64,000 nucleotides of DNA from Escherichia phage P-GXEC-L2P5, in sequence record PQ843332.1; one strand, written 5' to 3'. Positions 2,003-59,629 of this stretch are shown in pieces (the stretch's first letter is position 1; each line of letters begins with the position of its first letter). The notes below the pieces were generated by a model, which was not told the DNA's origin, did not search any database, and saw nothing but the letters and a program-made list of their open reading frames with translations. Position numbers and translations under genes: made by a program.

Positions 2003-2253
2003 TATTTTGTCTCCCAGCGGTCAATTGTTCTTGCTTCTGATGCAACGGCGAAGCGAACATATTCCAGATTGGAATCGGCCCAAATATAAAAGTCGGGATT
2101 AGTAAAGGTGGTGCGCTTAATTTGCGCGGGGGTGTTGCGGCGTTTGTCTATTACAGCCACGCGCGACCGAAAATTGCCGATGCGTTCGAATAGCCAATAA
2201 TATGGGCGTTGGTCGCGGGAGTCCACCGCCTCGATTAGCGTGAAGCGTGCCAT
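2002..2253 (-). CDS. hypothetical protein (83 aa)
   Basis: ORF conserved in unit 2 (51623..51874). Confidence 0.55.
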   Translation of the reverse strand: MARFTLIEAVDSRDQRPYYWLFERIGNFRSRVAVIDKRRNTPAQIKRTTFTNPDFYIWADSNLEYVRFAVASEARTIDRWETK

Positions 2254-2301
2254 TGTCTCGTCCTCTAAAAAGAGGCCCGCTAATATGCGGGCCGGATAAT
2301 A

Positions 2302-2427
2302 TTAATCTTCACCGCCGAGTTGTTTATAAACCTCGTCCGGGTCGTCGCCTCTTTCTTCGCAGAAGGCGGTGAATGCCGCCCAATTTTCTGCTATGAAATC
2401 GAGCATGATTCTCATTTCATAGTCCAT
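2302..2427 (-). CDS. small hypothetical protein (41 aa)
   Basis: Hand-translated MDYEMRIMLDFIAENW...; start directly after the upstream stop; conserved in unit 2. Confidence 0.35.
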   Translation of the reverse strand: MDYEMRIMLDFIAENWAAFTAFCEERGDDPDEVYKQLGGED

Positions 2428-2431
2428 GATA

Positions 2432-2950
2432 TTAGTCTTCCAGTTCGAAATAAGTCTCGACGATTTCTTTTAAATCTTTGTGGAAGTCTTCGACGTCGTC
2501 GTCTTCCAGCTTGGCGATTGATTTGATCTCGAACGCTTCCAGCAGGTCGTCAAATTCGTCGTTAGCATCGTCGTCATCACCACCGGCGATAATCGCGGCA
2601 TACTGTTTGATTTCGTCGCGCATCTCTGCCAGCGGATCGGCATCTTTCTTACCTTTGCCTTTCGCCGGTGCTTTTTTAGCCTTAGCCGGTTTTTCGTCTT
2701 CGGCGTCTTCGTCGTCGTCATCTTCTACGACTTCTTTTTTGGCCTTACCCTTCGCCGGTGCTTTTTTAGCTTTAGCCGGTTTTTCGTCTTCGGCTTCATC
2801 GTCGCCATCTTCGACAACTTCTTTTTTGGCCTTAGACGGCTTCTTGTCGTCCTGCTTACCAACGGCAGCGCCAACGGTTTCATAATGCTTAGCGATGACT
2901 TCCAGTGCTACTACGCCGCGAGTGATCAGGTTTACGATTTGCTCAAACAT
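2432..2950 (-). CDS. acidic/lysine-rich repeat protein, first gene of the leftward operon
   Basis: Internal in-frame repeat EVVED(D)..EDEKPAKAKKAPAKGK twice, poly-D/E tracts, GGAG RBS. Confidence 0.6.
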   Translation of the reverse strand: MFEQIVNLITRGVVALEVIAKHYETVGAAVGKQDDKKPSKAKKEVVEDGDDEAEDEKPAKAKKAPAKGKAKKEVVEDDDDEDAEDEKPAKAKKAPAKGKGKKDADPLAEMRDEIKQYAAIIAGGDDDDANDEFDDLLEAFEIKSIAKLEDDDVEDFHKDLKEIVETYFELED

Positions 2951-3759: not shown

Positions 3760-3846
3760 GGCAACGGCAATGAGCTTGATTAAATTCGCTGTAACACGAC
3801 CCGCTAAAAAAGGCGAAAAAGCCAGGTTCGAAGTAAGGCAACGGCA

Positions 3847-6111: not shown

Positions 6112-6255
6112 ATCCTGCGCGCATTGGTTGCCGGTATGGGAATTCCCATATCGCTAAAAGGTTAAATTTTGCGCGCATTGGTTGCCATTTTGAGTGTTTT
6201 TATCGGGTCGTATTGGTTGCCGTGTAGTGTAAATATAATGAATAGTTATGCAGTT

Positions 6256-6428: not shown

Positions 6429-6645
6429 AATAAAATCCGGGGATTGCAAAATACACGGCAGCATGATGCGAAGTGCGGTCGCGGATGAACTAGGCAACCA
6501 ATGCGAGTTGCATTATGCGAAGTGAAAAATGCGGTTTGCAGTCACAGCAGATAGCGATCAACTTTTTCATGCGCGTGATTAATATTGGTTGCGTTCCGCC
6601 TGGCACCTTGCTATATTGGTTGCACCCCAACATGAGGACTGAACA

Positions 6646-6972
6646 ATGAAAGCGATTATCTGGAATTACGCAATGGCTATGGCGGCGGCACAAGAAGCGG
6701 CGGAGTTCGCCGGTGAAGGAGCGGAAGCGGTCGAAAGACTATCGGCAGCGTGGTCCGTTGTTCGCGTCACGCAGCAGGCCATCGCTTGTATGCTGGAGCG
6801 CCGCTTCGACACGATGGCGGAGATCCAGCCACTGGCGAACGCAATCCAGGACTACGCGCTTGCATTTGCCCGTGAGCGCCTTGCGTATCGCTTCGGGATC
6901 GGCGAGACGGCAGTGACAAACGTCGCCCGGATTAAAGCCCAGCGTGAACTATTCGCCCAGCTTGCGAAATAA
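6646..6972 (+). CDS. hypothetical protein (108 aa, alanine-rich helical)
   Basis: ORF conserved in unit 2 (56423..56749). Confidence 0.55.
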   Translation: MKAIIWNYAMAMAAAQEAAEFAGEGAEAVERLSAAWSVVRVTQQAIACMLERRFDTMAEIQPLANAIQDYALAFARERLAYRFGIGETAVTNVARIKAQRELFAQLAK

Positions 6973-7209
6973 GGGGCCAAAATGAGCCGTTGACGCAGAC
7001 TCGCTACTTGCACCAGTTCGCAGCGCAACACGATTTCAGGGTGCGGACTTCCTTGCAACCAATGGGAATACGCAGACACGCTACTTGCACCAGTTCGCAG
7101 CAAAACACGATTTCAGGGTGCGGACTTCCTTGCAACCAATGGGAATTCGTATTACATTACGCCGGAAGCCCGCCGTTGAGCGGGTAGGCAAACACTGGAG
7201 ACTGAGCAA

Positions 7210-7464
7210 ATGACGCCAATGCAAATAACGCTAATGGCAGGGTATTCGCAGGAGTTTATCGACCTCGTATCCTGCTATGACGACTACACCCATTACGGCA
7301 TCGCTACGGTATGCGACGGCGACAACCTTACAGCCGACGAGCTTGATGAGGTCGACGACTACACTACCGAGGAACTTTGCGCGCTGATGTGCGGCGTGCC
7401 TGTATGGGCGAAAGAGTCCCCACTAGCCGCAGACGGCGACAACATGTACAGGTACAGAAAGTAA
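7210..7464 (+). CDS. small protein whose C-terminal ~45 aa mimic the DNA polymerase C-terminus; absent from unit 2
   Basis: DDYTTEELCALMCGVPVWAKESPLAADGDNMYRYRK versus polymerase DDYTTEELCALMCDLPIWAKGFPLAAEGDCMYRYRK. Confidence 0.5.
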   Translation: MTPMQITLMAGYSQEFIDLVSCYDDYTHYGIATVCDGDNLTADELDEVDDYTTEELCALMCGVPVWAKESPLAADGDNMYRYRK

Positions 7465-7536
7465 GATTATGAAAGCATCGATTAGCAAAACATTAAACTT
7501 CCCCGCAGCACGGTTAAACTTTAAGGAGACAGAACA

Positions 7537-8109
7537 ATGAAATTACTATTCCGCCGTAAGCACGATGGCCGTATCCTGAAGCCGATCCAAACCCTGGATT
7601 CCCACGTCCGCTTACAAAACGCGGCTGGCGGTCGGGTGTGGTGGGCAAAGAAATACACGCTGCCGGAAAACTTCGACGTACTAACTCACGATATCGAGCG
7701 CGGCGATGTGCTGCGTGATATTCGCGACGGCGGATTGTGGGTCGTCGAGTATGTCGGCCGTCATGGCCTGCGTATGCAATCCCGCAAGGATGGCGTAGTG
7801 GGTAACATACAGAGGGGTATGACGTACTTTGGGCTAATCAACTACGAGCGAGTGGGGCGCAAGTACAGCCTGCGCGACCGCCAGCCTCATGAGCGCGTTG
7901 AGTTCCGCAAGTCGCAGCCCGCGTATGCCACTTACGACGCGAGCAAAGTGATGGAGCCGATCCGCCAGGCCACGCGTGAGATAGTCAATCGCTTTGATGC
8001 CGTGACGAATGCACAGCGCCAGGCGCGGGAATACGGTGTGGGATTTATCCGTGTCGAACCAGACGGCAGCATGAAGGCCATCGACCCGCGCTCGGTGATT
8101 ATGAAATGA
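7537..8109 (+). CDS. hypothetical protein (190 aa)
   Basis: ORF with GGAGA RBS; conserved in unit 2 (57025..57567). Confidence 0.55.
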   Translation: MKLLFRRKHDGRILKPIQTLDSHVRLQNAAGGRVWWAKKYTLPENFDVLTHDIERGDVLRDIRDGGLWVVEYVGRHGLRMQSRKDGVVGNIQRGMTYFGLINYERVGRKYSLRDRQPHERVEFRKSQPAYATYDASKVMEPIRQATREIVNRFDAVTNAQRQAREYGVGFIRVEPDGSMKAIDPRSVIMK

Positions 8110-8252
8110 GTGCGTCTATCCGTGATATGCTCATGCACAACCGCTTTGAGATAGGCGGTCGGGTGTTTCGCAATTACTTCGTGGCGCGTGCATGGGCGCG
8201 CCATATTGGCAAACCGGAAGGGGCAATTCGATGCTATACGTCTTCGCGGTAG
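8106..8252 (+). CDS. small hypothetical protein (48 aa)
   Basis: ATGA overlap with the upstream stop; conserved in unit 2. Confidence 0.3.
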   Translation: MSASIRDMLMHNRFEIGGRVFRNYFVARAWARHIGKPEGAIRCYTSSR

Positions 8253-8316
8253 TATGTGGCGGTAGTCTGGCGGCCCTGGTGCTGTTGGCGTCGGTTATTA
8301 GTCTGGTTAAATACCT

Positions 8317-8616
8317 ATGGGGCAGATTATGATTCATGATGTGATTTATTGGTTTGGTATGGCCAGCATGTTATGCCTGGTTACGGGAGTGCTGGGCGCA
8401 ATATGGGTATTCCTGGTATGGCCTGCGGTGGAAGCTGCCAGCATTACCCGGATGACATTCGAGATCTACAAGCGCCGTGGAATAACGGAGCACCCGACCA
8501 GGCTTCGGATGTGGTGGCTGTGGTATCGGGATATGATAGGCGGTCGAACATTCGAAGCCGTCCGCTCATCCGGGTGGGAGTGGAAAGGCGTCGGCAAGTT
8601 GTCCGTTTTCGATTAA
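8317..8616 (+). CDS. small membrane protein (lysis-associated candidate)
   Basis: Hydrophobic segment FGMASMLCLVTGVLGAIWVFLVW; identical ORF in unit 2. Confidence 0.45.
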   Translation: MGQIMIHDVIYWFGMASMLCLVTGVLGAIWVFLVWPAVEAASITRMTFEIYKRRGITEHPTRLRMWWLWYRDMIGGRTFEAVRSSGWEWKGVGKLSVFD

Positions 8617-8668
8617 TTATGCAAGCGTGATATAGTCCCAGTGAGCTAAAACTTACTGGGACTTTTTT

Positions 8669-9007
8669 ATGGATAAGCTAAACGAGTGGTTATTCGCCCT
8701 CGCATGTCTGGCTGGCGGCTTCGTAGGCGCACGCATTCATGGCGAGGCTACGAAAGGGCCGCTAAACTTCGTGTTATATATCGTGGTCGGCTTCTTGTGT
8801 GCCGTTTTTGGCGCTCCAGCGATTGCCGAGTGGGCGGGCTTATCTGGTGAGCGCACTGTCGCCGGTTTGGGGTTCGTAACTGCAATCTTCTGGATGCCAA
8901 TAGCCGCCCGGATCAGGGAGACTATTGAGTCGTTCCGACTTCCGGGGGCGCAAAATGATTATCTCCGTCCTGTTGTTTGTTATCATCGGGGCTTCGTCCC
9001 TGTTTAA
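8669..9007 (+). CDS. holin-like membrane protein; C-terminus differs from unit 2 by a 1-nt indel
   Basis: Two or three predicted transmembrane segments; directly upstream of the endolysin. Confidence 0.5.
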   Translation: MDKLNEWLFALACLAGGFVGARIHGEATKGPLNFVLYIVVGFLCAVFGAPAIAEWAGLSGERTVAGLGFVTAIFWMPIAARIRETIESFRLPGAQNDYLRPVVCYHRGFVPV

Positions 9008-9031
9008 CGTGTATGCGCCGGGGGGCGCAAA

Positions 9032-9277
9032 ATGATTATCTCCGTCCTGTTGTTTGTTATCATCGGGGCTTCGTCCCTGTTTAACGTGTATGCGCCGTCC
9101 GTCCGGGATGGCATTTTCGGTCGGGTGCTATATCTGCTAACGGCGATGATCTGCGTTATCGGATTGTTGCAAACAGGAGACGTATCTGACACCACCTGGA
9201 CCGCGTTAATCTGGCTGTTTGCATTGCGCACGCTGCGTAATGCTGTTTTGAATGGGGTAAAACATGCGATTCAGTGA
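9032..9277 (+). CDS. small membrane protein (holin/antiholin candidate)
   Basis: MIISVLLFVIIGASSLF and LLTAMICVIGLL hydrophobic segments; overlaps the endolysin start. Confidence 0.5.
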   Translation: MIISVLLFVIIGASSLFNVYAPSVRDGIFGRVLYLLTAMICVIGLLQTGDVSDTTWTALIWLFALRTLRNAVLNGVKHAIQ

Positions 9278-9755
9278 CAACGGTCTACGATTTACGGCAG
9301 CATGGGAGACGTTTAGCCCGGTGCCGTATTTCGCGACTAAGAAAGAGCAGGCCCGCGGCCTGTACACCTGGGGTTATGGTCACACTGGCACTAACCCGCC
9401 TCGAAGCATTACCCGCGCGGAAGCGCTGGAGCTACTTAAGCGCGATGTGGCGTATGCTGAGGACTGGGTGAACAAATACGCGCATAATAGCATTAACCAG
9501 GCGCAATTCGACGCGCTGGTGGACCTGGTTATCAATGCAGGTCAAGGTCCGATCGTACCGGACCATATTGCCAATGACTTCGACGACGCGGTGCGCTTGG
9601 GCGACTGGGCGAAGGTCCGTGCTACGCTGCCGCAGTTCCGCAAGCAAGGCGGCGAAGTGCTTAAGGGTCTGGTACGCCGTGCAATCGGCAGACAGGCGTT
9701 GTTTGATGGTAAGCAGTGGGACGTTGCCGAACGAATCGGTCGTAACGCTGCATAA
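9264..9755 (+). CDS. endolysin, GH24 lysozyme family
   Basis: GYGHTG and NQAQFDALVDLVINAG motifs typical of lambda R / P22 gp19-type lysozymes. Confidence 0.85.
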   Translation: MRFSDNGLRFTAAWETFSPVPYFATKKEQARGLYTWGYGHTGTNPPRSITRAEALELLKRDVAYAEDWVNKYAHNSINQAQFDALVDLVINAGQGPIVPDHIANDFDDAVRLGDWAKVRATLPQFRKQGGEVLKGLVRRAIGRQALFDGKQWDVAERIGRNAA

Positions 9756-9771
9756 TACGAGGGGACACGAT

Positions 9772-9939
9772 ATGTTAAAAAGTATTCTTGATCATAATGC
9801 GGACGCGCTTGCCGCACTGGCTAAAACCGAAGACCCAGGCGCACGCGCTATCATCGCGGACTCTATCAACCACGCGGGGGTCTTTGATGCGAAGCTGCCA
9901 AGCCCACCACCGCCGGAAGAACCCGGCCCCGCAGCGTAA
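9772..9939 (+). CDS. small hypothetical protein (55 aa, proline-rich C-terminus)
   Basis: GAGGGGA RBS; no cysteine, so not an Rz1-type lipoprotein. Confidence 0.3.
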   Translation: MLKSILDHNADALAALAKTEDPGARAIIADSINHAGVFDAKLPSPPPPEEPGPAA

Positions 9940-9946
9940 ACAATCA

Positions 9947-9971
9947 AGCCCGGATAATACCGGGCTTTTTA
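9947..9971 (+). terminator. rho-independent terminator
   Basis: AGCCCGG-ataata-CCGGGCT followed by TTTTTAT. Confidence 0.75.
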
Positions 9972-9975
9972 TTGC

Positions 9976-10005
9976 TTGACTCGCAACCAACATAGGGGCC
10001 ATACT
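9976..10005 (+). promoter_or_regulatory. candidate sigma70-like promoter overlapping two GCAACCAA motifs
   Basis: TTGACT, 18-bp spacer, CATACT (TATACT in unit 2). Confidence 0.4.
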
Positions 10006-10176
10006 GCAACCAACCAACGAGAGGAGTAATCAAGATGGCACGTAAAGATATTTGGGTATTGGCAATCTGGACCACCGCAGCTTTCATCGGCATGGTTATT
10101 TGCGAATTGATATAGCCCGCCGCCATATGGACCGTGGTATATTGTCCACGGTCAACTAATCAGGAATTAATTAAAT

Positions 10177-11473
10177 ATGCACCCGCAAACTAAAATTACC
10201 GATGAGCAATTGATCACAGAAATTCAGGCAGGGACTACGGTTAAAGAGATTGCGAAGAAATACGGCATTGCACTTCGAAATGTCTATATGCGCAAAGCCC
10301 GCCTGTCGAAAAAGGGGATTGGTCATGGCAATTATGCCGTGATCCGTAAGCGCGTTGCCGATGGCTTTGGGGTTAAGCGCGTATCGGCCCTGGTGCGCGG
10401 TAATGGCGAAGAGGTCATGTCGTGGGTCATCACTGAGCAGGACAAGGAGCGCCAACTCGAAGCTATGCGCGCTGTTGTCGAGGGTATGAACAGCGAAATC
10501 ACACCGGCAGCGCCAGTAAACGCCCCGCCAGTACCGATCCCATGCGCGCTGTTGTCGAGGGTATGAACAGCGAAATCACACCGGCAGCGCCAGTAAAAGC
10601 CCCGCCAGTACCGATCCAGGCGCTAGACTTGCTCAACCTGTACACCGTGTCCGACTTCCACCTGGGTATGCTGGCATGGGGCGAGGAGACTGGCGAAGAT
10701 TGGGATATGGCGATCGCCGAAGACCTGTTCTACCGCTGGTTTGTCGAAGCCTTCGCCCGCGCACCGGACGCAGGCACTGCCGTGATCAATATCCTCGGCG
10801 ATATGGCGCACTTTGATAGCCTTGATGCCGTCACACCGGCAAGCGGTCACGTATTGGACGCCGACACCCGATACCAGAAGTTAGTCCGCTACATGATCCG
10901 CATGGTGCGCAACGTGGTAGACCTGGCGCTGCAAAAACACCACAAAGTCAAACTGCTAATCGTCCAGGGTAATCATGACGAGTCAGGCATGATTTGGCTT
11001 GCTGAGATGTTCAACACGCTGTACGAGAACGAGCCGCGCGTCGATGTGGATACGATGAGTCGGGCATGATTTGGCTTGCTGAGATGTTCAACACGCTGTA
11101 CGAGAACGAGCCGCGCGTCGATGTGGATACGTCCCCGGACGTCTACAAGATGGTGCAGCACGGTAAGACCACACTATTTTTCCACCACGGGCACAAAGCG
11201 CGATTTGACGCTATCGAGCCGGTCATGATTTCGAAATTTCGTGAGGCGTTCGGGTCCAGCCAGTACAGCTATGCGCACGTAGGACACCTGCACCACCAGA
11301 AGATTGTCGAATCGCGCAACATGATTGTTGAACAGCACCGCACGCTTGCCGCGAAGGATGCCTACGCCAGCCGAGGCGGTTGGATGAGCGGACGCAGTGC
11401 AAACGTGATAACCTATAGCGCCAACTACGGCGAAGTAGCGCGCTTAACCATTAGCCCGGAAATGTTGAAATGA
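10177..11473 (+). CDS. HTH domain fused to calcineurin-like metallophosphoesterase; frame broken by duplications near 10490..10600 and 10980..11075
   Basis: N-terminal HTH TVKEIAKKYGIALRNVYMRKARL; phosphoesterase motifs DFHLGM, GDMAHFD, GNHDE, HHGH, GHLHH; reads as one ORF in unit 2 apart from a single duplication. Confidence 0.7.
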
Positions 11474-11715
11474 TCAGACAAGTATTCATGAGCACGCAGG
11501 CCACCCGCCTGAAAGAACTACGCAAGCAACTCGAAGGCTTGCGCCGATTTGAACGAACGGCAGCGGCAGTCGGAATGTCGATGGACGAGAGGATCGAAAT
11601 ACTGTCGCAAATACGCTACACAGAAGGCGCGATAAGAGAAGTACAAAGCATGTTAACCCGATACTACGGGCGCGGATACTATCGCAAATACGCTACACAG
11701 AAGGCGCGATAAGAG
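11470..11715 (+). CDS. small hypothetical protein present only in unit 1
   Basis: ORF with internal artefact duplication; the whole ~290-bp segment is missing from unit 2. Confidence 0.35.
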
Positions 11716-11767
11716 AAGTACAAAGCATGTTAACCCGATACTACGGGCGCGACGTTTAAACCGCGCA

Positions 11768-11793
11768 GCCCCACCGATTTGGTGGGCTTTTTT
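11768..11793 (+). terminator. rho-independent terminator
   Basis: CCCACC-gattt-GGTGGG followed by CTTTTTTGT. Confidence 0.7.
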
Positions 11794-11798
11794 GTGCC

Positions 11799-11807
11799 TG
11801 TTATAAT
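11799..11807 (+). promoter_or_regulatory. extended -10 promoter element upstream of the terminase genes
   Basis: TGtTATAAT perfect extended -10; conserved in unit 2. Confidence 0.45.
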
Positions 11808-11855
11808 CCCCTTAGATGGCAGGGCCGTCTCTTATGTTGCCGATGGTCGGCGCAT

Positions 11856-12428
11856 ATGCACAAAAGGGCTTATATCATGGCAGAAATTAAAGTTAAAGGC
11901 CGTCGCGCTAAACTGGACGGACGAGTAGCAGTTACCCCGCGCCGTAAACCAGGCGAGCAAACCGAGCACACCAATCTCGGACCTGAAATCGAGTACGGAA
12001 AGCGCCGTAAAGGCGGCAAATGTGGACGCCCTACTGACTACCGATCCGTTTACTGCGACCAGCTTCGCCGCTATTTTGCCGACGCCGACGCATGGCAGGT
12101 CAACTACTCCGATAAAGGCGCTGCGCAAGTAATCCCCCGGAACAAAATGCCAACCTTCGGCCGATTTGCCGCTGAAATCGGCGTGGGTGTAGCTTGCTTG
12201 TATCGCTGGGCGCGTGCGCATGAGGAGTTTGCCGAGGCGATGGCGGACGCAATGGAGTTGCAGAAAACTTTCCTGATGGAAGCTGGCGGCGTAACCATCG
12301 CGGCGGGCTTCGCTACGTTCCTGCTTAAAGCAAACCACGGCGTCCGCGACGATGTACCGCTGGATGACGACGAAGATGATAACGGCGACGTAGTTGTCGA
12401 ACCTTCCGGCAAAGGTCAGGGTGAATAA
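11856..12428 (+). CDS. terminase small subunit
   Basis: GRPTDYRSVYCDQLRRYFADA region and acidic C-terminus; immediately upstream of TerL; alternative start 11877. Confidence 0.65.
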   Translation: MHKRAYIMAEIKVKGRRAKLDGRVAVTPRRKPGEQTEHTNLGPEIEYGKRRKGGKCGRPTDYRSVYCDQLRRYFADADAWQVNYSDKGAAQVIPRNKMPTFGRFAAEIGVGVACLYRWARAHEEFAEAMADAMELQKTFLMEAGGVTIAAGFATFLLKANHGVRDDVPLDDDEDDNGDVVVEPSGKGQGE

Positions 12429-13890
12429 TGCGTAACTATGCGGCAGAACACCGCGCACTGGAACGCGCGATCGCAAAGCGTAACCGACCGCCACGCCCGA
12501 CACGCGTTGCGCAGGCCGTCCGCCTTTACCAGCCAGATTGCCTTCCGCACCAGGTCGAACTGCTGCGTGACACGAAGACTAAAATCCTCGGCCTGTGTTC
12601 CGGCTTCGGTGGTGGGAAGTCGTGGGTCGCAGCCCGTAAGGTAATCCAGCTTCTGACACTTAACCCCGGTCATGATGGCATCGTAACAGAACCGACGATT
12701 CCCCTCCTGGTTAAAATCATGTATCCGGAATTGGAAAAGGCATTCGACGAGGCGGGCTTCCGGTGGAAGTTCAATAAGCAGGACAAGATCTATAACGTGC
12801 TTGTGAAAGGCAAATGGACCCGCGTTATCTGTGAGTCAATGGAGAACTATACCCGCCTGATCGGGGTTAATGCCGCGTGGATTGTTGCCGACGAGTTCGA
12901 TACCACGAAGCAAGACGTCGCGCTGGCGGCATATCACAAATTGCTCGGTCGTCTGCGTGCTGGCTTCGTCCGCCAGTTCGTCATCGTGTCAACGCCTGAA
13001 GGCTACCGGGCGATGTATCAAATTTTCGAAGTGGAGAAGGATAGCCAGAAGCGTTTGATCCGGGCGAAGACCACCGATAACCACCACTTACCGGCAGACT
13101 TTATCGACACGCTGCGCAGCCAATACCCGGCTAACCTGATTGATGCGTACTTGAACGGCCTGTTTGTCAACCTTACGTCGGGCGCGGTGTACAAGATGTT
13201 CAACCGGGAGGAGAACGCCAGCACCGAAGAAGTGCAGCCGGAAGACACGCTGATTATCGGCATGGACTTTAACGTCACGAAGATGGCGGCGGTCGTGTAC
13301 GTCAGACGGCAGCGCATCACCGAAAACAAGGAGTTCCGCGACGAGATCCACGCAGTGGATGAATTTGTGGACCTGTTTGATACCCCGGCTATGATTGAGG
13401 CGATCGAGGAGCGCTACCCCGATCATTGTGCTGCCGGTCGTGTTGTCGTTTACCCGGATAGCAGCGGCAAGTCTCGCAAGACTGTTAACGCATCGTCGTC
13501 AGATATCGCACAACTGGAAGACGCGGGCTTCGAGGTGGAATACGACAGTGTTAACCCACCTGTGAAAGACCGATTGATCGCGATGAATACTATGATGTGC
13601 AACTCGAAGGGTGTGCGCCAGTATTTGTTAACCCGCCTGTGAAAGACCGATTGATTGCGATGAATACGATGATGTGCAACTCGAAGGGTGTGCGCCAGTA
13701 TTTTGTCAACCTGGATAAATGCCCTACACTAGCGAAATGTCTGGAACAGCAGGTTTACGACCTGAAGAAAGGCGAGCCGGATAAAACCGCCGGTGTGGAC
13801 CACATGAACGATGCCGCGGGCTATCCAATTGCGCACCTGTTCCCAGTGATTCGCCCAATCGCCGTTGTTCCAACTGTAGACTTCTACTAA
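12428..13890 (+). CDS. terminase large subunit (ATPase plus nuclease); 3' part frame-broken by duplication near 13560..13680
   Basis: Walker A GFGGGKS, Walker B IVADEFD, C-terminal nuclease region VDHMNDAAGYP. Confidence 0.85.
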
Positions 13891-13900
13891 GGAAACGACC

Positions 13901-15652
13901 ATGACCGTTAACGTAGACAACCAGCACCCGCTCTATGCGCGCATCGCGCCAGAGTGGAAAATGATCCGTGACTGCGTAGCAGGGGAGCGCGTGACAACCA
14001 GCACCCGCTCTATGCTCGCATCGCGCCAGAGTGGAAAATGATCCGTGACTGCGTAGCAGGGGAGCGCGCCGTGAAGGCGTGCGGGCCATTATACCTGCCA
14101 CACCCAGCAAGCGGCGACACCACCGACCCTAAATCGCGTGCGCGTTATAAGGCGTATAAGCAGCGCGCCGTCTTCCTGAACGCCACCGCCAGAACCCTTA
14201 ACGCACTGTTAGGCGTGGCCTTCGCGAAGCCGGTGAGTATTGACCTTTCCGGGGCAATGGCTGACCTGATTGATGACGTAGACGGCAGCGGGATGCCACT
14301 GGCGCAACTCCTGCGCGGTGCTATGTCGGAAGTGCTGCAATCAGGCCGTGCGGGCTTTATGGTGGACTACGATCGCCAGGCGCATTTTGATGAACTGGGT
14401 AACGTAGTTCCGCAGACAGCCGCCGAGATGGCGTCACACCGCCCTCTTATCCGCCTGTACACGGCAGAACAGATCATCAACTGGCGGCAGACCAACGGCG
14501 TCGATACGCTAATTGTGCTGAAGGAAACGGACGAAATCAGCACCGAAGACCCGGACGACTTCGCAAACCACGAAGTAACAATCTGGACCGAGCTTCGCAT
14601 GATTAACGGTGCGGCACACGCCCGCCGCTGGTACTACAACGCGGACACGTCCGAGGTGCAAATGGACTTGCCGCGCGGCTTCACCCGAACCGACCTTGTA
14701 CCACTGGTGGATGCTGCCGGTAACGCGCTTACGCAACTACCGTTTTGCTGGTGCGGTGCGGTGGACAACAACGCAACGCCTGACGCCGCTCCGCTGGCGG
14801 ATATCGCATCCATCAACATTAAGCACTACAACGCCGAAGCGGACGTCGCCGAGATTGCGCACATCGTGGGCCAGCCTACCCTAGTTGCGACGGGCTTGAC
14901 CCAATCATGGGCGGACAAGAACCTGAAGGGCGGCATTGCCCTCGGTGCGACTAAGGGCGTTATCCTGGGCCAGAACATGGACGCTAAACTGATCCAGGCG
15001 GAGGAGCGCAACTTGTCTGTTGCACTGTGTGAGCGTCGCGAATTGCAAATGGCTAAACTTGGCGCGGCCCTGGTCGAGAAGGGGACCGCACCTAAGACGG
15101 CAACGGAAGCGGCCTACGATGCGCAGTGGCTAAACTGGGCGCGGCCCTGGTCGAGAAGGGGACCGCACCTAAGACGGCAACTGAAGCGGCCTACGATGCG
15201 CAGACTGATAACAGTATCCTGTCACTGATTGCCGGTAACGTCGAGAAGGCTTTCAACCGTGCGCTGCAAATCGTCCAGCTATTCACGGGCGACACCGCCG
15301 ACCAGCGTGTGACGCTGAATAAGTTCTACACCGAAATCACGGTTGATGCGCAGCTTATGACCGCGATGATGTCGGGTGTGCAGACGGGTACGGTCCGCCT
15401 GGCTGACTTCATCAAGTGGATGATGGCGCAGGGTGTCATCGACGACTCGCAAACCGTCGAGCAGGTGGAAGACGAATTGCGAAATCAGAATCCATTGCCT
15501 CAAATGTCCCCGTTATTGATGACTCGCAAACCGTCGAGCAGGTGGAAGACGAACTGCGAAATCAGAATCCATTGCCTCAAATGTCCCCTGATGCGGTAGA
15601 ATCTACCGAAGAAGACCCGGACAAGGTAGCGGACAATGGCGAAGACAATTAA
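13901..15652 (+). CDS. portal protein; frame broken by three duplications
   Basis: Large ORF directly after TerL and before the head morphogenesis gene; assignment by position and size only. Confidence 0.6.
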
Positions 15653-16816
15653 TCAACATTTGGCGGATCGAATGATTCGCCGTCACATCTTCACCCAGCG
15701 CCTGAGCAATGATCAGGCGCGGAGGGTGCTGGCTATGTGGGAGAAGTTCCGGCCCACTTTACTTGGTAAGCTGACCGAGTTACTTGATGGCAAAAAGTCC
15801 ATGAGCAACAAGGCACTTACCACACTGTTAACCCAAATCGACAAGACCGTCAAAACGGAACTGCGCGCCGAGTTTAAAGTGCTGGCGGAGAGCCTTCAGG
15901 AGTTCGCCGACACCGAGGCTGATTATCTCGCGGACACACTAACGGCAGCGATCCAGCCCGCTGTCGCTGTACCAGCGGTTGAGGTGGTGGGTGTAGTTAC
16001 GGGCGCGCAGATTGCAGCGACTGCAATGAAAAACCCGTTCCAGGGAAACACCATGATGCAATGGCCTGATTCACTTTCCGAGTGGACTAGGACGCAGATC
16101 GGCAATCAGGTGCGCGCTGGATTCATCCAGGGCAAGCCGACGATGGAAATTATCGCGGATGTGAGGCGCGCGCTAGGCGGTCGTAGTGCGCAAGCAATCT
16201 CAAGCGTTGTTAAGTCCGCGGTCAACCACTATGCGGCGACCGCCCGCGAATTAATGGTAAAAGCTAATGACGATATTCTCGAAGGTCGCCAATGGTTGGC
16301 TACATTGGACACGCATACTTCTCCCATGTGCCAGCTACGCGATCGCCTGTTTTATCCGGTTGATGTCAATGGTTATCTACATTGGACACGCATACTTCTC
16401 CCATGTGCCAGCTACGCGATCGCCTGTTTTATCCGGTTGATGTTACTCCCGACACCAAAGGAAAGCGCGGCGGGAAAGTGGTGGCGGGGTCACAATATGG
16501 CGCTGGTCCGGGCAAGCTGCATTATTGCTGCCGTTCGACGGAGACGTGGAAAGTCAAAGGTATGGAAGATTGGCCCAGTGGTAAGCGTCCGGCACTGAAG
16601 GCTGACGCAGGCAGATTGCTGAGTGAGCAGGTCGACGCGCAGACTGATTTCTTCTCATGGGTGCAGCGCCAGCCGCGCCATATTCTGGAGGAATTATATG
16701 GGGTGCAGCGCGCCGATCAGATTATGCGCGGCGTGAAAGTGCCGAAGATGTTCACCGATACTGGCGAACTAATGACTATTGCACAGCTTAAAAACCGGGG
16801 GTTATGGCGTGATTAA
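15636..16816 (+). CDS. head morphogenesis protein (Mu F / SPP1 gp7-like)
   Basis: ATLDTHTSPMCQLRD motif typical of the family; duplication near 16300..16420. Confidence 0.7.
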
Positions 16817-17138
16817 GTATGCAGCGATTGGGCTGGTTATCGGTCTGGTGGTAGGATTCTGGCTAGGTGACTCCTATCGCGCTGGCGTAGTGGCGGAGGC
16901 GGCGCAAGAAGCGCAAGCAGAAGCCCAACGGCAGCAAACTAAAGTTATTGAGCGCTCCGTGCAGGCCGAACAAGCCCGCGACGTAGAATACCGGACTATC
17001 ACGAAAGAGGTTGTTAAATATGTTACGCGCCCTAACCGCCCTGATTGTAGTTTTGATGCTGAGCGCGTGCGGATCAAGCAACGTGCCGTTGATGCCGCTA
17101 ACGGAGTCGGCACTGCGACCGCCGTGCAAGTTCGATAG
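16809..17138 (+). CDS. i-spanin (Rz-like)
   Basis: N-terminal transmembrane segment AAIGLVIGLVVGFWLG then coiled-coil AEAAQEAQAEAQRQQ; GTG start with GGGGG RBS (alternative ATG 16779). Confidence 0.55.
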   Translation: MIKYAAIGLVIGLVVGFWLGDSYRAGVVAEAAQEAQAEAQRQQTKVIERSVQAEQARDVEYRTITKEVVKYVTRPNRPDCSFDAERVRIKQRAVDAANGVGTATAVQVR

Positions 17139-17327
17139 AGCGCGTGCGGATCAAGCAGCGTGCCGTTGATGCCGCTAACGGAGTCGGCACTGCGACCGCC
17201 GTGCAAGTTCGATAACCCGTCCGCGGACCCCGACGAAGATTTGATGATTGACGTGAAAAATATGGAATGCGGGGCGAAGCTGAGGGCGCAGGTCCTGGAG
17301 TTGCAGCAGATAATTCGGGGGCCGTAA
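17020..17327 (+). CDS. o-spanin lipoprotein (Rz1-like) overlapping the i-spanin in the +1 frame; interrupted by duplication 17140..17214
   Basis: Signal peptide with lipobox LSAC|G, proline-rich mature part, AAGAGG RBS. Confidence 0.55.
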
Positions 17328-17342
17328 TGGCCCCCTTTTATT
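17316..17342 (+). terminator. rho-independent terminator
   Basis: GGGGGCC-gtaat-GGCCCCC followed by TTTTATT. Confidence 0.75.
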
Positions 17343-18105
17343 AGCGCGGAATACCGCAGATTTCGTTTAACGTCTTCACGTCCAGTGCCACCGCCGTGGA
17401 CTTCGGCTTGTCCGGGTATGGAATAAACTGTTCCACTTCAGGCCACGCCTTGATCAGCTTCTTATCGGTATTGTGCATATCCAGCACACCGGTAACGGTT
17501 AGTTTGAACGCGTCATACTTAGCTCGCAACTCGCGGCGGGACTTGTCGTTGCGATCCAGGCACTTACAGAAATCATGGTCCGCCGGGTAGTCTACGCGAC
17601 CGCGCGGAAGATATATCGGCAGCGATTTTCCGTCCTCGTCCACTTCGCACACTGAAGCCAGCATAACTTCCTCGTACCCCGGTACGATATCACCGAGATC
17701 GGGAGATAGCTTGTTCATATATTTCTCTTCCCAGTATCCGCGGTGCAGGCGGTATCGGTATCCATCGCCGCTCAATGATACGGTGCGAACATTACCGCCT
17801 GCGTTGATATCGAATCCGGCGCTATAAACGCGGCCGATGCCTTTTGGCCGGTCGGAGTTATAGCTATACGTCGCCTTGTCGGTGTAAACGCTAACGCCAT
17901 ACATCTGCGACTGGTTATCGCGGATTTCTGCGATATATGCGCGTAACTCGGCGAACGTGCGAATGCCTTCCGGCATACAGTCCAGCGTAATGGCGTACGC
18001 CAAGTCGCGAGAGTCCATCATGATGGATTTTGCTTCGGTCGCGATTTCATGGTCGCGCAGGATGTTAGCCAGAATCTGGTTTTTAATGTCTTTCGTCAGT
18101 CTCAT
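17341..18105 (-). CDS. hypothetical protein (254 aa), opposite-strand moron gene
   Basis: ORF 17341..18192 with the likely start at MRLTKDIK (AAGAGG RBS); no recognisable motif. Confidence 0.5.
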   Translation of the reverse strand: MRLTKDIKNQILANILRDHEIATEAKSIMMDSRDLAYAITLDCMPEGIRTFAELRAYIAEIRDNQSQMYGVSVYTDKATYSYNSDRPKGIGRVYSAGFDINAGGNVRTVSLSGDGYRYRLHRGYWEEKYMNKLSPDLGDIVPGYEEVMLASVCEVDEDGKSLPIYLPRGRVDYPADHDFCKCLDRNDKSRRELRAKYDAFKLTVTGVLDMHNTDKKLIKAWPEVEQFIPYPDKPKSTAVALDVKTLNEICGIPR

Positions 18106-18119
18106 TTGTGTGTCCTCTT

Positions 18120-18281
18120 TTAGTGGTTGTATAATTCGCCGCGTGCGTCGGCATCTTCCATTTGGTGTAGTGCGTGTTTCTGGTCCTGGCAAGGAATCCA
18201 GCGTTCCTCTAATTTATGCCAGAAGTAAAACACCCCGTTATCCAGCTTAATCTCGGCAATACCGTTATTGAAAGTTAGCAT
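18120..18281 (-). CDS. small hypothetical protein (53 aa), first gene of the moron unit
   Basis: GAGGG RBS; ATTGGTTGCA tandem motif immediately upstream. Confidence 0.4.
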   Translation of the reverse strand: MLTFNNGIAEIKLDNGVFYFWHKLEERWIPCQDQKHALHQMEDADARGELYNH

Positions 18282-18430
18282 TTTGTTACCCTCATTTGTT
18301 GGTATGCAACCAATATACTGCAACCAATCCACCAATGCAAGCAAATTTTGCGATTATTTTTATCGCTGATAATATTAGAAGCGTGAAGTCGAGCGGGTGG
18401 CCTGCTCTGCCACAATCCCAGGGGGATAGC

Positions 18431-19212
18431 ATGAAACTTACTAAAGCAGAATATGACGCGTTGCCGGAAGGTATGAAGGCGCTTTTTGTTGCCGATGGCG
18501 ACGGGTATAAATCAACGTTCATGACCGCAGAAGAAGTACAGGCGGAAATCAAGGGTCTGAAAGACAACAACGCTAAGCTGGTGAGCGAGAAGAAAGCAGA
18601 AGCTGAACGCCGCGCCGAAGCTGAGCGCCTTGCGAAAGAGAAAGAGGAAGCCGCCGCGCGCAAAAATGGCGACCTCGAAGCGATCGATAAGTCCTGGAAA
18701 GATAAGTTTGCGAAACACGAAGCAGACACATCGGGAAAAATCGAAGCCTACCGCAAGCAGATCCACGACCTAACCATCGGCAGCGCTGCCAAAGACCTGG
18801 CATCGAAGCTATTCGGTAAGAATGCGGGCATCATGCAACGCCACGTAATGGACCGCCTGACGCTGGAAGACGGCGAAGACCGAAGCTGTTCGGTAAGAAT
18901 GCGGGCATCATGCAACGCCACGTAATGGACCGCCTGACGCTGGAAGACGGCGAAGACGGCAGCTTGAAAGTGCGTGTCTTGCAGGATGGCAAACCGTCCG
19001 CGCTGACTATGGAAGAGCTTGAAAAAGAGTTCCGTAATAACGCCGATTTTGCATCCGTCCTGGCTGGCACGCCAGCCGGTGGTGCGCCGAGCAAACCGAC
19101 GCAGGTTGTCGAAGATGTGAAGTCGAAAATCACTATGGGCCATAGCTTCGGTATCACTGACCTTACGAAACAGGCGGGGGATATCATCGCGAAGATGGGC
19201 GACGACGAGTAA
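18431..19212 (+). CDS. scaffolding protein
   Basis: Charged coiled-coil protein (AEAERRAEAERLAKEKEEAAARK) directly upstream of the major capsid gene; duplication near 18815..18960. Confidence 0.6.
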
Positions 19213-52048: not shown

Positions 52049-52052
52049 GATA

Positions 52053-57567: not shown

Positions 57568-57710
57568 GTGCGACGATCCGTGATATGCTTCAGCACAACC
57601 GCTTTGAGATAGGCGGTCGGGTGTTTCGCAATTACTTCGTGGCGCGTGCATGGGCGCGCCATATTGGCAAACCGGAAGGGGCAATTCGATGCTATACGTC
57701 TTCGCGGTAG
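57564..57710 (+). CDS. unit 2: small hypothetical protein (homolog of 8106..8252)
   Basis: ATGA overlap conserved. Confidence 0.3.
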   Translation: MSATIRDMLQHNRFEIGGRVFRNYFVARAWARHIGKPEGAIRCYTSSR

Positions 57711-57774
57711 TATGTGGCGGTAGTCTGGCGGCCCTGGTGCTGTTGGCGTCGGTTATTAGTCTGGTTAAATACCT

Positions 57775-58074
57775 ATGGGGCAGATTATGATTCATGATGT
57801 GATTTATTGGTTTGGTATGGCCAGCATGTTATGCCTGGTTACGGGAGTGCTGGGCGCAATATGGGTATTCCTGGTATGGCCTGCGGTGGAAGCTGCCAGC
57901 ATTACCCGGATGACATTCGAGATCTACAAGCGCCGTGGAATAACGGAGCACCCGACCAGGCTTCGGATGTGGTGGCTGTGGTATCGGGATATGATAGGCG
58001 GTCGAACATTCGAAGCCGTCCGCTCATCCGGGTGGGAGTGGAAAGGCGTCGGCAAGTTGTCCGTTTTCGATTAA
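57775..58074 (+). CDS. unit 2: small membrane protein
   Basis: Identical in protein sequence to 8317..8616. Confidence 0.45.
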   Translation: MGQIMIHDVIYWFGMASMLCLVTGVLGAIWVFLVWPAVEAASITRMTFEIYKRRGITEHPTRLRMWWLWYRDMIGGRTFEAVRSSGWEWKGVGKLSVFD

Positions 58075-58203
58075 TTATGCAAGCGTGATATAGTCCCAGT
58101 GAGCTCGGGTGGGAGTGGAAAGGCGTCGGCAAGTGGTCCGTTTTCGATTAATTATGCAAGCGTGATATAGTCCCAGTGAGCTAAAACTTACTGGGACTTT
58201 TTT

Positions 58204-58494
58204 ATGGATAAGCTAAACGAGTGGCTATTCGCCCTGGCATGTCTGGCGGGTGGCTTCGTAGGCGCACGCATTCATGGTGAGGCTACGAAGGGGCCGCTAA
58301 ACTTCGTTTTGTATGTTGTAGTTGGCTTCCTGTGTGCCATATTTGGCGCACCGGCTATTGCCGAGTGGGCTGGTTTGTCGGGTGAGCGCACTGTCGCCGG
58401 TTTGGGCTTCGTAACTGCGATCTTCTGGATGCCAATCGCCGACCGGATCAGGGAGACTATTGCGTCGTTCCGACTTCCGGGGGGCGCAAAATGA
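58204..58494 (+). CDS. unit 2: holin-like membrane protein
   Basis: 96-aa ORF ending with ATGA overlap into the next gene. Confidence 0.5.
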   Translation: MDKLNEWLFALACLAGGFVGARIHGEATKGPLNFVLYVVVGFLCAIFGAPAIAEWAGLSGERTVAGLGFVTAIFWMPIADRIRETIASFRLPGGAK

Positions 58495-58736
58495 TTATCT
58501 CCGTCCTGTTGTTTGTTATCATCGGGGCTTCGTCCCTGTTTAACGTGTATGCGCCGTCCGTCCGGGATGGCATTTTCGGTCGGGTGCTGTATCTGTTAAC
58601 GGCAATGGTCTGTATTATCGGATTGTTGCAAACAGGAGACGTATCGGATACCACCTGGACCGCGTTAATCTGGCTGTTTGCATTGCGCACCCTGCGTAAT
58701 GCTGTTTTAAATGGGGTAAAACATGCGATTCAGTGA
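58491..58736 (+). CDS. unit 2: small membrane protein
   Basis: Homolog of 9032..9277. Confidence 0.5.
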   Translation: MIISVLLFVIIGASSLFNVYAPSVRDGIFGRVLYLLTAMVCIIGLLQTGDVSDTTWTALIWLFALRTLRNAVLNGVKHAIQ

Positions 58737-58799
58737 TAACGGTCTTCTGGCTGTTTGCATTGCGCACCCTGCGTAATGCTGTTTTGAATGGGGTAAAAC

Positions 58800-59445
58800 A
58801 TGCGATTCAGTGATAACGGTCTACGATTTACGGCAGCCTGGGAGGCTTTCAGCCCGGTGCCGTATTTCGCGACCAAGAAAGAGCAGGCCCGCGGCCTGTA
58901 CACCTGGGGCTATGGTCACAGGCTTTCAGCCCGGTGCCGTATTTCGCGACCAAGAAAGAGCAGGCCCGCGGCCTGTACACCTGGGGTTATGGTCATACCG
59001 GCACTAATCCGCCTCGAAGCATTACCCGCGAGGAAGCGCTGGCACTGCTCAAGCGCGATGTGGCGTATGCTGAGGACTGGGTTAACAAATACGCACATCC
59101 GAGCATTAACCAGGCGCAATTCGACGCGCTGGTGGACCTGGTAATCAACGCCGGTCCGGGTCCGATCGTACCGGATGACGTCGCGAATGATTTCGATGAT
59201 GCGGTGTGGTGGACCTGGTAATCAACGCCGGTCCTGGTCCGATCGTACCGGATGACGTCGCGAATGATTTCGATGATGCGGTACGGTTGGGCGACTGGGC
59301 GAAGGTCCGTGCTACGCTGCCGCAGTTCCGCAAGCAAGGCGGCGAAGTGCTTAAGGGTCTGGTACGCCGTGCAATCGGCAGACAGGCGTTGTTTGATGGT
59401 AAGCAGTGGGACGTTGCCGAACGAATCGGTCGTAACGCTGCATAA
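58800..59445 (+). CDS. unit 2: GH24 endolysin; frame broken by duplications
   Basis: ORFs 58934..59221 and 59206..59445 carry the GYGHTG and NQAQFDALVDLVINAG motifs. Confidence 0.75.
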
Positions 59446-59461
59446 TACGAGGTAACACAGT

Positions 59462-59629
59462 ATGTTAAAAAGTATTCTTGATCATAATGCGGACGCGCTT
59501 GCTGCACTGGCTAAAACCGAAGATCCGGGCGCTCGCGCTATCATCGCGGACTCTATAAACCACGCTGGGGTCTTCGATGCGAAGCTGCCTAGCCCACCAC
59601 CGCAGGAGGAATCTGGTCCTGCAGCGTAA
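59462..59629 (+). CDS. unit 2: small hypothetical protein (homolog of 9772..9939)
   Basis: ATG 59462; same proline-rich C-terminus. Confidence 0.3.
   Translation: MLKSILDHNADALAALAKTEDPGARAIIADSINHAGVFDAKLPSPPPQEESGPAA

Follow-up and report, generated by a model that had tools for sequence, protein, structure and literature searches.

The lysis genes in the 64,000-nt stretch analysed here (the window; sequence record PQ843332.1, Escherichia phage P-GXEC-L2P5) are very probably the usual multi-gene set by which a Dhillonvirus lyses its host, seen here through a defective metagenome assembly. This is a canonical holin–endolysin–spanin system and is already known. The separation of the spanin genes from the other lysis genes is real, is standard for Dhillonvirus and is already annotated in public genomes.

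Phage identity and state of the assembly

To place the window, a 10-kb region was compared with public records. It matched 157 records, and in at least 95 of them the collinearity extended over 80% or more of the region. Nucleotide identity in this region was 99% to the Escherichia phages slur05 and slur06 and 92–96% to many other members of Dhillonvirus. This similarity and collinearity over the 10 kb place the window in Dhillonvirus as an HK578-like E. coli siphophage. The gene order is identical to that of slur05 and slur06 (NC_028901, LN881730, LN881731) and is also found in the complete isolates Pandora71, Sponge, PC2, WFI, BEK2-2 and Zar3M.

The window itself is a faulty, chimeric assembly with un-trimmed 77-nt overlaps. 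It contains 64 tandem duplications, each of exactly 77 nt, which are absent from real phages. We compared every junction with slur05: in each case the additional 77 nt were present in the window only and the gene order was unaffected, the other differences from slur05 being small strain differences. Removal of one copy per duplication restored all the broken genes. In addition, the self-comparison revealed a second, divergent copy of the holin/endolysin region, about 88–96% identical to the first, in which open reading frames (ORFs) were identified after de-duplication.

9021..9097, no strand: artefactual second 77-nt copy, equal to 8944–9020 with 0 mismatches; +77 nt relative to slur05
17138..17214, no strand: artefactual second 77-nt copy, equal to 17061–17137 with 1 mismatch; absent from slur05
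57650..59629, plus strand: second divergent copy of the holin/endolysin region
58204..58494, plus strand: second-copy holin 1 (96 aa)
58491..58736, plus strand: second-copy holin 2
58723..59445 (raw coordinates), plus strand: second-copy endolysin

The holin–endolysin unit

8192..8332, plus strand: 46-aa ORF with one transmembrane (TM) core (KD17 maximum 2.52 at residues 17–33)
8317..8616, plus strand: 99-aa membrane ORF; phrog_2531, "unknown function" (1.8e-34)
8634..8663, plus strand: terminator-like hairpin with T-run; 12-bp stem, MFE -19.8 kcal/mol, z = -7.5
8669..9007, plus strand: predicted holin 1, 112 aa, three hydrophobic TM cores; phrog_2359 holin (1.6e-32)
9032..9277, plus strand: predicted holin 2, 81 aa, 2–3 TM cores; phrog_2508 holin (3e-27)
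9264..9755, plus strand: GH24 (T4-lysozyme-type) endolysin, 163 aa; PF00959 Phage_lysozyme (3.7e-21), phrog_7 endolysin
9772..9939, plus strand: 55-aa proline-rich ORF; phrog_11068, "unknown function" (KD17 maximum 0.75, no Cys)
9946..9967, plus strand: terminator-like hairpin; 8-bp GC-rich stem with T-run, MFE -14.5 kcal/mol, z = -3.9

The preliminary description of this DNA had regarded the small membrane proteins upstream of a GH24 endolysin as holin-like. This holds for two of them: both are small, carry TM domains, match a PHROG holin family and are encoded directly upstream of the endolysin gene, which marks them as probable holins. Judged by the same features, the 99-aa product of 8317..8616 was not recognised as a holin; it has one strong TM core (residues 18–34), its family has no assigned function, it is a hypothetical protein in slur05 and Pandora71, and a hairpin stands between its gene and that of holin 1. 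The 46-aa ORF preceding it matched no Pfam or PHROG family and is hypothetical in relatives.

Holin 1 is annotated as "holin" in slur05 and Pandora71. It has 112 aa here and in slur05 and 96 aa in the second copy of the window and in Pandora71, a difference caused by a G5/G6 run. The start of holin 2 is duplicated by the artefact at 8944–9020/9021–9097, and its true start corresponds to position 8955 in the first copy, so that in the real genome the gene overlaps holin 1 by 53 nt; the slur05 holins lie at 2170..2508 and 2456..2701.

The endolysin was borne out as described. Its PF00959 score was 76.2 bits against a gathering cut-off of 22.3, it matched PDB entry 8hp8 (endolysin mtEC340M; 9e-32) and other lysozyme/GH24 muramidase chains, and the conserved Glu of its AAWE/AAFE motif aligned with that of solved GH24 enzymes. 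The protein is soluble and not of the SAR type, with a KD17 maximum of 1.13 and no hydrophobic N-terminus, SAR or signal sequence. The 55-aa ORF that follows was rejected as a spanin, as it has neither a TM segment nor a lipobox, and a hydropathy and lipobox scan of the endolysin neighbourhood found no other spanin candidate. The hairpin at 9946..9967 closes the unit.

Genes between the endolysin and the spanins

Gene identities were taken from the slur05 and Pandora71 annotations, the de-duplicated ORFs and the analysis of the junctions.

10177..16816, plus strand: intervening genes
within 10177..16816, upstream of TerS, plus strand: HTH/calcineurin-like exonuclease gene, then a small ORF
11856..12428, plus strand: TerS
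12428..13890, plus strand: TerL
13901..15652, plus strand: portal
15636..16816, plus strand: head morphogenesis

Eight of the 77-nt artefacts interrupt these genes in the raw window and leave only TerS intact; after de-duplication, intervening ORFs of 380, 461, 506 and 367 aa were obtained. In the raw window 7053 nt separate the end of the endolysin gene from the beginning of the i-spanin gene; this figure includes the eight artefacts, and the real gap is thus 6437 nt, as in slur05. The lysis genes are therefore indeed divided, as proposed, but by less than the approximately 7 kb read from the raw sequence.

The spanin pair

16809..17138, plus strand: i-spanin (Rz-like), 109 aa, GTG start; phrog_2536, "Rz-like spanin" (3e-36)
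17020..17327, plus strand: o-spanin (Rz1-like), 76 aa without 17138–17214; phrog_5672 (1e-26) and phrog_1267 (6.6e-12), "Rz-like spanin"
17317..17335, plus strand: intrinsic-terminator-like hairpin; 7 pairs in the fold, T-run, MFE -17.1 kcal/mol

We searched for TM segments with a simple Kyte–Doolittle scan (KD17) and for the lipobox with a regular expression. A spanin pair had been proposed to follow the head morphogenesis gene, and both diagnostic features, the TM segment and the lipobox LSAC, were found, in agreement with the PHROG matches. The GTG of the i-spanin gene overlaps the head morphogenesis stop codon by 8 nt, an overlap conserved in Dhillonviruses; its raw stop codon, TAG, spans an artefact junction and the true one is TAA. 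The protein starts with a type II TM segment at residues 1–17 (MIKYAAIGLVIGLVVGF; KD17 = 2.09) with Lys3 ahead, and its single periplasmic cysteine, C80, is kept in 7/7 Dhillonvirus sequences, making it a candidate for a homotypic disulfide. It is 37% identical (1e-16) to the i-spanin of the Jerseyvirus Shelanagig annotated by the Center for Phage Technology (CPT). This homology, the match to phrog_2536 and the listing of genus members in the "Jersey" family of i-spanins (see below) agree on the membership of the protein in a recognised spanin family.

The o-spanin starts with ATG at 17020, in the +1 frame relative to the i-spanin. In the raw window this frame runs only to a stop at 17169 and the C-terminal end of the protein is read in another frame (17160..17327), because the artefactual duplication of 17061–17137 as 17138–17214 shifts the frame. 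The de-duplicated 76-aa protein matches the proteins of relatives and is 44% identical to the Shelanagig o-spanin (3e-18). Its N-terminus (MLRALTALIVVLMLSAC) contains the lipobox LSAC with Cys17 and has Gly, not Asp, at +2, in keeping with sorting to the outer membrane; in relatives the lipobox is LSAC, LTAC or MSAC at an unchanged position. Further cysteines are Cys36 and Cys58, and the mature part is short (60 aa) and proline-rich; the precursor as a whole (76 aa) has 7 Pro. In de-duplicated coordinates of the segment, the i-spanin occupies 110–439 and the o-spanin 321–551. The o-spanin had been described as embedded in the +1 frame; the frame was correct, but the genes share 119 nt and the o-spanin runs 112 nt beyond the i-spanin stop, so that the pair is overlapped. 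The slur05 pair (9617..9946 and 9828..10058) is likewise overlapped. The 7 Dhillonviruses, whose i-spanins are 75–99% identical, retain GTG as the start codon, the TM segment, the lipobox and the positions of the cysteines.

The hairpin directly 3' of the o-spanin overlaps its stop codon and faces a convergent minus-strand gene. A consensus scan counted 8 pairs, 7 of them G–C, and the annotation of phage WFI has a putative terminator here. By fold and hairpin scan, both gene blocks are flanked by hairpins with T-runs, and the transcription units were drawn from these hairpins only; in a sigma-70 scan, shuffled sequence gave more promoter-like sites than the real one. Neither the holins nor the spanins are recognised by Pfam or NCBIfam models, only by PHROGs. 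In the literature searched, no Dhillonvirus lysis gene was the subject of an experiment, and the assignment of all lysis functions is therefore based on homology and sequence features.

Comparison with other phages

A lysis cassette divided in this way had been called uncommon. This was not the case: the layout is invariant in annotated Dhillonviruses, with 95 collinear records, and RefSeq NC_028901 (slur05) already carries the labels holin, holin and endolysin, then further on head morphogenesis and Rz-like spanin. Pandora71 is annotated with the same layout; it has only the o-spanin annotated, and the o-spanin ORF is missing from the RefSeq slur05 annotation. In vB_EcoS_P78 the holins are genes 31–32, the endolysin gene 33 and the spanin gene 40 (PMC12677095). 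The overlapped "Jersey" families of i- and o-spanins in Kongari et al. (2018; BMC Bioinformatics 19:326, PMC6139136) include the Dhillonvirus type phages HK578, EP23, JL1, SSL-2009a and SO-1, and the EP23-to-SO-1 subfamily has the overlapped architecture and the short i-spanin seen in the window, with no difference of substance; the window represents a further strain. Identity of its spanins is 83–99% to Dhillonvirus homologues, against 37–44% to those of Jerseyvirus.

The suggested comparison with relatives thus recovered the same arrangement within the genus, and in Jerseyvirus and Kagunavirus homologous spanins occupy the corresponding position among the head genes. In Shelanagig the holin and endolysin lie at 39.6–40.4 kb, TerS at 55 and the spanins at 6023–6518, between head morphogenesis/decoration and scaffold; homologues of its endolysin and of both its spanins are present in the window. 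In the part of the Kagunavirus Bas74 record covered here, the spanin pair is likewise flanked by the head-morphogenesis/decoration genes on one side and the scaffold gene on the other. Sequence comparison found no similarity between the holins of the window and those of the related genera.

In lambda, Rz1 is embedded in Rz along its whole length, the two genes come immediately after R, and R is a transglycosylase. The S-R-Rz/Rz1 system shares its parts with the window, namely a class I-type holin with three TM domains, a soluble muralytic enzyme, a type II i-spanin and a +1-frame lipoprotein o-spanin, and in both phages lysis genes precede the terminase genes and share their strand. The window differs in that its spanin pair is overlapped and is found 6.4 kb further downstream, behind head morphogenesis, and in that its endolysin is a GH24 lysozyme. 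The T7 spanins 18.5/18.7 sit between the small and large terminase genes. In T4, the spanin genes pseT.3/pseT.2 are likewise remote from those of holin and endolysin (Kongari et al., 2018; PMC6139136). Both phages are textbook examples of such unlinked spanins. The T4 spanin genes are separate and those of T7 embedded, they show no sequence similarity to the window and their neighbours differ. T1 gp11 is a unimolecular spanin, the last gene of a contiguous cassette (PMC6139136), and the Drexlerviridae, the group of small siphophages to which T1 belongs, have been described as relatives of Dhillonvirus (Maffei et al., 2021); gp11 serves the same step of outer-membrane disruption, as a single protein instead of a two-component spanin in the head block.

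Proposed lysis pathway and alternative explanations

By analogy with the lambda/T4 lysis model, the holin with three TM domains would accumulate in the inner membrane and trigger hole formation, and the second, adjacent holin-family protein may be a co-holin or antiholin. The soluble GH24 endolysin would then reach the periplasm and degrade the peptidoglycan. Loss of the murein meshwork would free pre-assembled spanin complexes, made up of the type II inner-membrane i-spanin with its helical periplasmic domain and the outer-membrane o-spanin lipidated at Cys17, for fusion of the inner and outer membranes; the conserved cysteines would be available for disulfides in the complex. The spanin pair would be the last cistrons of a terminase–portal–head-morphogenesis unit. 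As spanins do nothing before the peptidoglycan has been broken down, only their late synthesis would be needed and their position would be free to drift. The position common to Dhillonvirus, Jerseyvirus and Kagunavirus was probably inherited.

Given a mis-assembled window with 64 duplications and a second genome pass only 87–96% identical to the first, the spanin separation might be thought a product of the chimeric assembly, found in no real genome. This explanation has almost no probability: it is refuted by the collinear complete isolate genomes and the 6437-nt gap in slur05, and each artefact lengthens its junction by no more than 77 nt and leaves the gene order intact. It is also very improbable that the ORFs at 16809..17327 encode small head-assembly or other membrane proteins and that the outer membrane is disrupted otherwise or need not be disrupted. 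The ORFs do lie inside the head gene block and match no Pfam or NCBIfam spanin model; against this stand the strong PHROG "Rz-like spanin" matches (3e-36 and 1e-26), the out-of-frame overlapping pair with type II TM segment, lipobox and periplasmic cysteines kept in relatives, the homology to the CPT-curated Shelanagig spanins, the Jersey family assignment by Kongari et al. and the lack of a rival spanin next to the endolysin, where the 55-aa ORF has no TM segment or lipobox.

The position in the head operon might instead be selected, with translational coupling to head morphogenesis adjusting the amount or the timing of spanins to capsid assembly, apart from the holin–endolysin transcript. 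The place is kept in Dhillonvirus, Jerseyvirus and Kagunavirus despite the exchange of the holins, Dhillonviruses retain the 8 nt shared by the i-spanin start and the head morphogenesis stop, and hairpin terminators bracket separate units. Common descent, however, explains the conserved synteny equally well, the Jerseyvirus/Kagunavirus pair follows other small genes and is uncoupled from head morphogenesis, and in the established model lambda spanin function is independent of precise timing, so we consider such selection unlikely. That the placement was kept because spanin synthesis is functionally coupled to capsid-gene expression and not to the holin/endolysin transcript is likewise a quite improbable conclusion; if true, capsid-coupled spanin synthesis would be an independent control point for the last lysis step.

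The practical value of the case lies in the assembly artefact. The duplications frameshift many genes, and any other conclusion about this window that depends on disrupted genes, on short tandem repeats or on recurring peptide motifs needs a second look once the extra copies have been removed. For the biology of these phages, the inherited Dhillonvirus layout confirms that spanin genes need not sit in the lysis cassette, as has already been documented; their placement is a trait shared by inheritance among Dhillonvirus and Guernseyvirinae genera and carries little biological weight.

Identity of the phage and structure of the contig

By megablast against phage records, positions 8000-18000 of the window matched 157 records, nearly all of them Escherichia phages of the genus Dhillonvirus, and in 95 records a single place accounted for 80% or more of the 10-kb query. 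Since slur05 and slur06 were the best matches (99% identical), the window is, judging from these alignments, that of an HK578-like E. coli siphophage.

Genes for exonuclease, terminase, portal, head morphogenesis and o-spanin all showed, in the ORF list, identical peptide stretches at the end of one ORF and the start of the next. Searching for repeats and scanning the sequence directly revealed 64 tandem duplications, each exactly 77 nt long with 77-nt spacing, whose copies differed at 0-4 positions (for example 391-544, 8944-9097, 10463-10616, 13549-13702, 17061-17214, 30823-30976, 41422-41575 and 63829-63982). As 77 is not divisible by 3, any duplication within a gene shifts the reading frame, and most long genes of the window are frameshifted in this way. 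Compared with slur05, the window was 77 nt longer at each junction within 7000-19000, and no other rearrangement was found across this range. When one copy of each duplication was removed, full-length exonuclease (380 aa), TerL (461 aa), portal (506 aa), head-morphogenesis (367 aa) and o-spanin (76 aa) proteins were obtained. Real repeats, such as regulatory repeats or programmed frameshift sites, were rejected as an explanation: the duplications have a single length and are always tandem over 64 occurrences, none was present at the slur05 junctions checked, and the genes were all restored by removal. They look like untrimmed k=77 k-mer overlaps joining concatenated unitigs.

Past one genome length the window enters a second pass, displaced by about 49.4-49.8 kb when the artefacts are counted (1-14500 against 49700-64000). 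Because the second pass was only 87-96% identical to the first in a self-comparison, the contig looks like a chimeric path through the assembly graph, from at least two co-occurring related Dhillonvirus strains, and not a clean circular wrap-around. At 48597-48827 the 77-nt copies occur three times in succession rather than twice, with the 3' end of the first copy divergent; the triple copy suggests two artefact junctions back to back. Given the duplications, findings from this window that rest on broken genes or short repeats are suspect. Imperfect repeats at 2655-2821 and 52276-52522 (81-93 nt spacing, 71-75% identity, in a T/C-rich stretch) look genuine and are separate from the 77-nt artefact at 52369-52522. 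They probably code for a minus-strand protein segment that is repetitive, charged and of low complexity.

Holins, endolysin and neighbouring genes

Features of the two lysis regions (raw window coordinates)
8192..8332: 46-aa ORF, one TM core, without family match
8317..8616: 99-aa membrane protein, phrog_2531, 'unknown function'
8634-8663: strong hairpin and T-run, -19.8 kcal/mol
8669..9007: holin 1, 112 aa, three hydrophobic cores, phrog_2359 'holin' (1.6e-32)
9032..9277: holin 2, 81 aa, phrog_2508 'holin' (3e-27)
9264..9755: endolysin, PF00959 (76 bits, cut-off 22.3), PDB 8hp8 (9e-32)
9772..9939: orf55, 55-aa proline-rich ORF after the endolysin, no TM segment, no Cys
9946-9967: second hairpin
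17317-17335: GC-rich hairpin and T-run, -17.1 kcal/mol, overlapping the o-spanin stop codon and facing a convergent minus-strand gene

The preliminary description had placed lysis functions both in this upstream block and behind the head-morphogenesis gene. Family matches bear this out for the holins and the GH24 endolysin upstream and for the spanins downstream; the protein at 8317..8616, however, belongs to a family of unknown function. Searches of Pfam and NCBIfam gave no significant match for either holin, either spanin or the 99-aa ORF, all of which were recognised by PHROGs alone. No hydrophobic N-terminus was found in the endolysin. The ORF that follows it, orf55, was considered as a missing endolysin-proximal spanin and rejected, as TM segment, Cys and lipobox are all absent.

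The start of holin 2 is duplicated by the artefact at 8944-9097; in real genomes holin 2 starts before holin 1 has ended, and in slur05 the two overlap by 53 nt. As in slur05, the first copy of holin 1 encodes 112 aa, whereas the second (58204..58494) encodes 96 aa, as in Pandora71. A single G within a G5/G6 run close to the 3' end makes the difference; it alters the cytoplasmic tail and changes the overlap with holin 2 from a 4-nt ATGA to 53 nt; this may be either a real polymorphism or a homopolymer error.

Between the lysis and terminase genes, a 380-aa protein (10177..11473 in the raw window, with two artefacts inside) combines a calcineurin-like phosphoesterase/SbcD-type nuclease domain with a helix-turn-helix-like region at its N-terminus. 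The Jerseyvirus Shelanagig has a similar 'HTH-type regulator/nuclease SbcD', but at a different position and on the opposite strand.

The spanin pair

The i-spanin starts with GTG at 16809, 8 nt ahead of the end of the head-morphogenesis gene (TAA, 16814-16816). The protein, of 109 aa, matches phrog_2536 'Rz-like spanin' (3e-36) and has an N-terminal TM core and a single cysteine, Cys80. The o-spanin is read in the +1 frame from an ATG at 17020, with AAGAGG ahead of it. This gene is broken in the raw sequence: its frame ends at 17169, since the duplicate at 17138-17214 shifts it, and a protein of 76 aa is recovered once the duplicate is removed. Its signal, MLRALTALIVVLMLSAC, has Cys17 with Gly at +2; further cysteines are at positions 36 and 58, and the protein matches phrog_5672 (1e-26) and phrog_1267. 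The two genes overlap by 119 nt and the o-spanin extends 112 nt past the i-spanin, so the architecture is overlapped, not embedded as first proposed.

Both overlapping frames are open in seven Dhillonviruses, whose i-spanins are 75-99% identical to that of the window and retain GTG as start codon, the TM segment and Cys80. Their o-spanins all have 76 aa, a lipobox at the same position (LSAC, LTAC or MSAC) and Cys17, Cys36 and Cys58. Such conservation is what a functional spanin pair would be expected to show. With a TM segment and a lipobox both found, the spanin labels stand; that the pair at 16809..17327 is something other than spanins is very unlikely, as the family matches and the conserved features contradict it.

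At the site of the 17317-17335 hairpin, phage WFI carries a putative-terminator annotation. Beyond it, a minus-strand gene (17341..18192, 283 aa), 'Nmad5 domain-containing protein' in Pandora71, is the sole gene in reverse orientation, with the spanins on one side and the scaffold gene on the other. Next to this gene, about 178 nt at 18118-18295 are absent from slur05 and overlap a 74-aa minus-strand ORF (18120..18344).

Predicted transcription units and lysis

Hairpins with T-runs were located at 8634, 9946, 11770 and 17317. Judging from their positions, holin-holin-endolysin-orf55 would form one unit and TerS-TerL-portal-head morphogenesis-spanins another that ends with the spanin cistrons, and the i-spanin start may be translationally coupled to the head-morphogenesis stop. 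In a sigma-70 promoter scan, hits were rarer than in shuffled sequence, and the scan was uninformative on transcription starts.

The observations bear directly on the parts list for lysis and the sequence features of its members. By analogy with the established lambda/T4 model, the holin would perforate the inner membrane, the soluble GH24 endolysin would escape and break down the peptidoglycan, and the spanin complexes, already spanning the periplasm, would then be freed to fuse both membranes. A position in the head block may be tolerated because spanins would be harmless until the wall is gone, so that any late transcript would suffice.

The split layout in Dhillonvirus and its relatives

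In the RefSeq annotation of slur05 the order is holin, holin, endolysin, hypothetical, exonuclease, hypothetical, terminase, terminase, portal, head morphogenesis, Rz-like spanin. There, 6437 nt separate the endolysin stop from the spanin start; the 7053 nt of the raw window equal this distance plus eight 77-nt artefacts, and the separation of about 7 kb reported at first was therefore inflated. That the split itself was made by the assembly is excluded, since collinear complete genomes contradict it. The same layout is found in vB_EcoS_P78, where genes 31-32 are listed as holins, gene 33 as the endolysin and gene 40 as an Rz-like spanin (PMC12677095), and a 'putative spanin' is annotated at the o-spanin position in Pandora71. 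Kongari et al. (2018; PMC6139136) assigned HK578, EP23, JL1, SSL-2009a and SO-1 to the 'Jersey' families of overlapped i- and o-spanins and also described a shorter EP23-to-SO-1 subfamily. Literature searches for explicit comment on the split in Dhillonvirus or Jerseyvirus returned gene lists only, with no discussion.

A tblastn search with the i-spanin gave 666 records, which outside Dhillonvirus were mainly Salmonella Jerseyvirus, Kagunavirus and some Klebsiella phages. In the carefully annotated Shelanagig, holin and endolysin lie at 39644-40400 and TerS starts at 55, while the i-/o-spanin pair (6023-6518) has capsid morphogenesis/decoration genes on one side and scaffold/major capsid genes on the other; in the Kagunavirus Bas74, compared for spanin position only, the pair occupies the same place. 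Shelanagig proteins homologous to those of the window are the endolysin (49% identity, 6e-42), the i-spanin (37%, 1e-16) and the o-spanin (44%, 3e-18). Holin 1 was compared with the class I holin of Shelanagig as a test of whether the whole cassette is ancestral; no similarity was detectable, and sharing is thus shown for the endolysin and spanins only. Elsewhere, the T7 spanin genes 18.5/18.7 sit between the two terminase genes. In T4 the spanin genes lie apart from t and e (Kongari et al., 2018; PMC6139136).

The preliminary description was real in outline and right on function, but wrong on rarity and in three details, namely the embedded architecture, the o-spanin ORF, which is broken in the raw sequence, and the inflated distance: the split arrangement is already known and annotated in a common coliphage genus and is not unusual. 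It is rather unlikely that the spanin position was selected as well as inherited, the one point in favour being the conserved synteny. Since the spanins of Shelanagig and Bas74 occupy the head block, and the endolysin and spanins of Shelanagig are homologous to those of the window, head-block placement of the spanins is an inherited feature across the Dhillonvirus/Jerseyvirus/Kagunavirus group.
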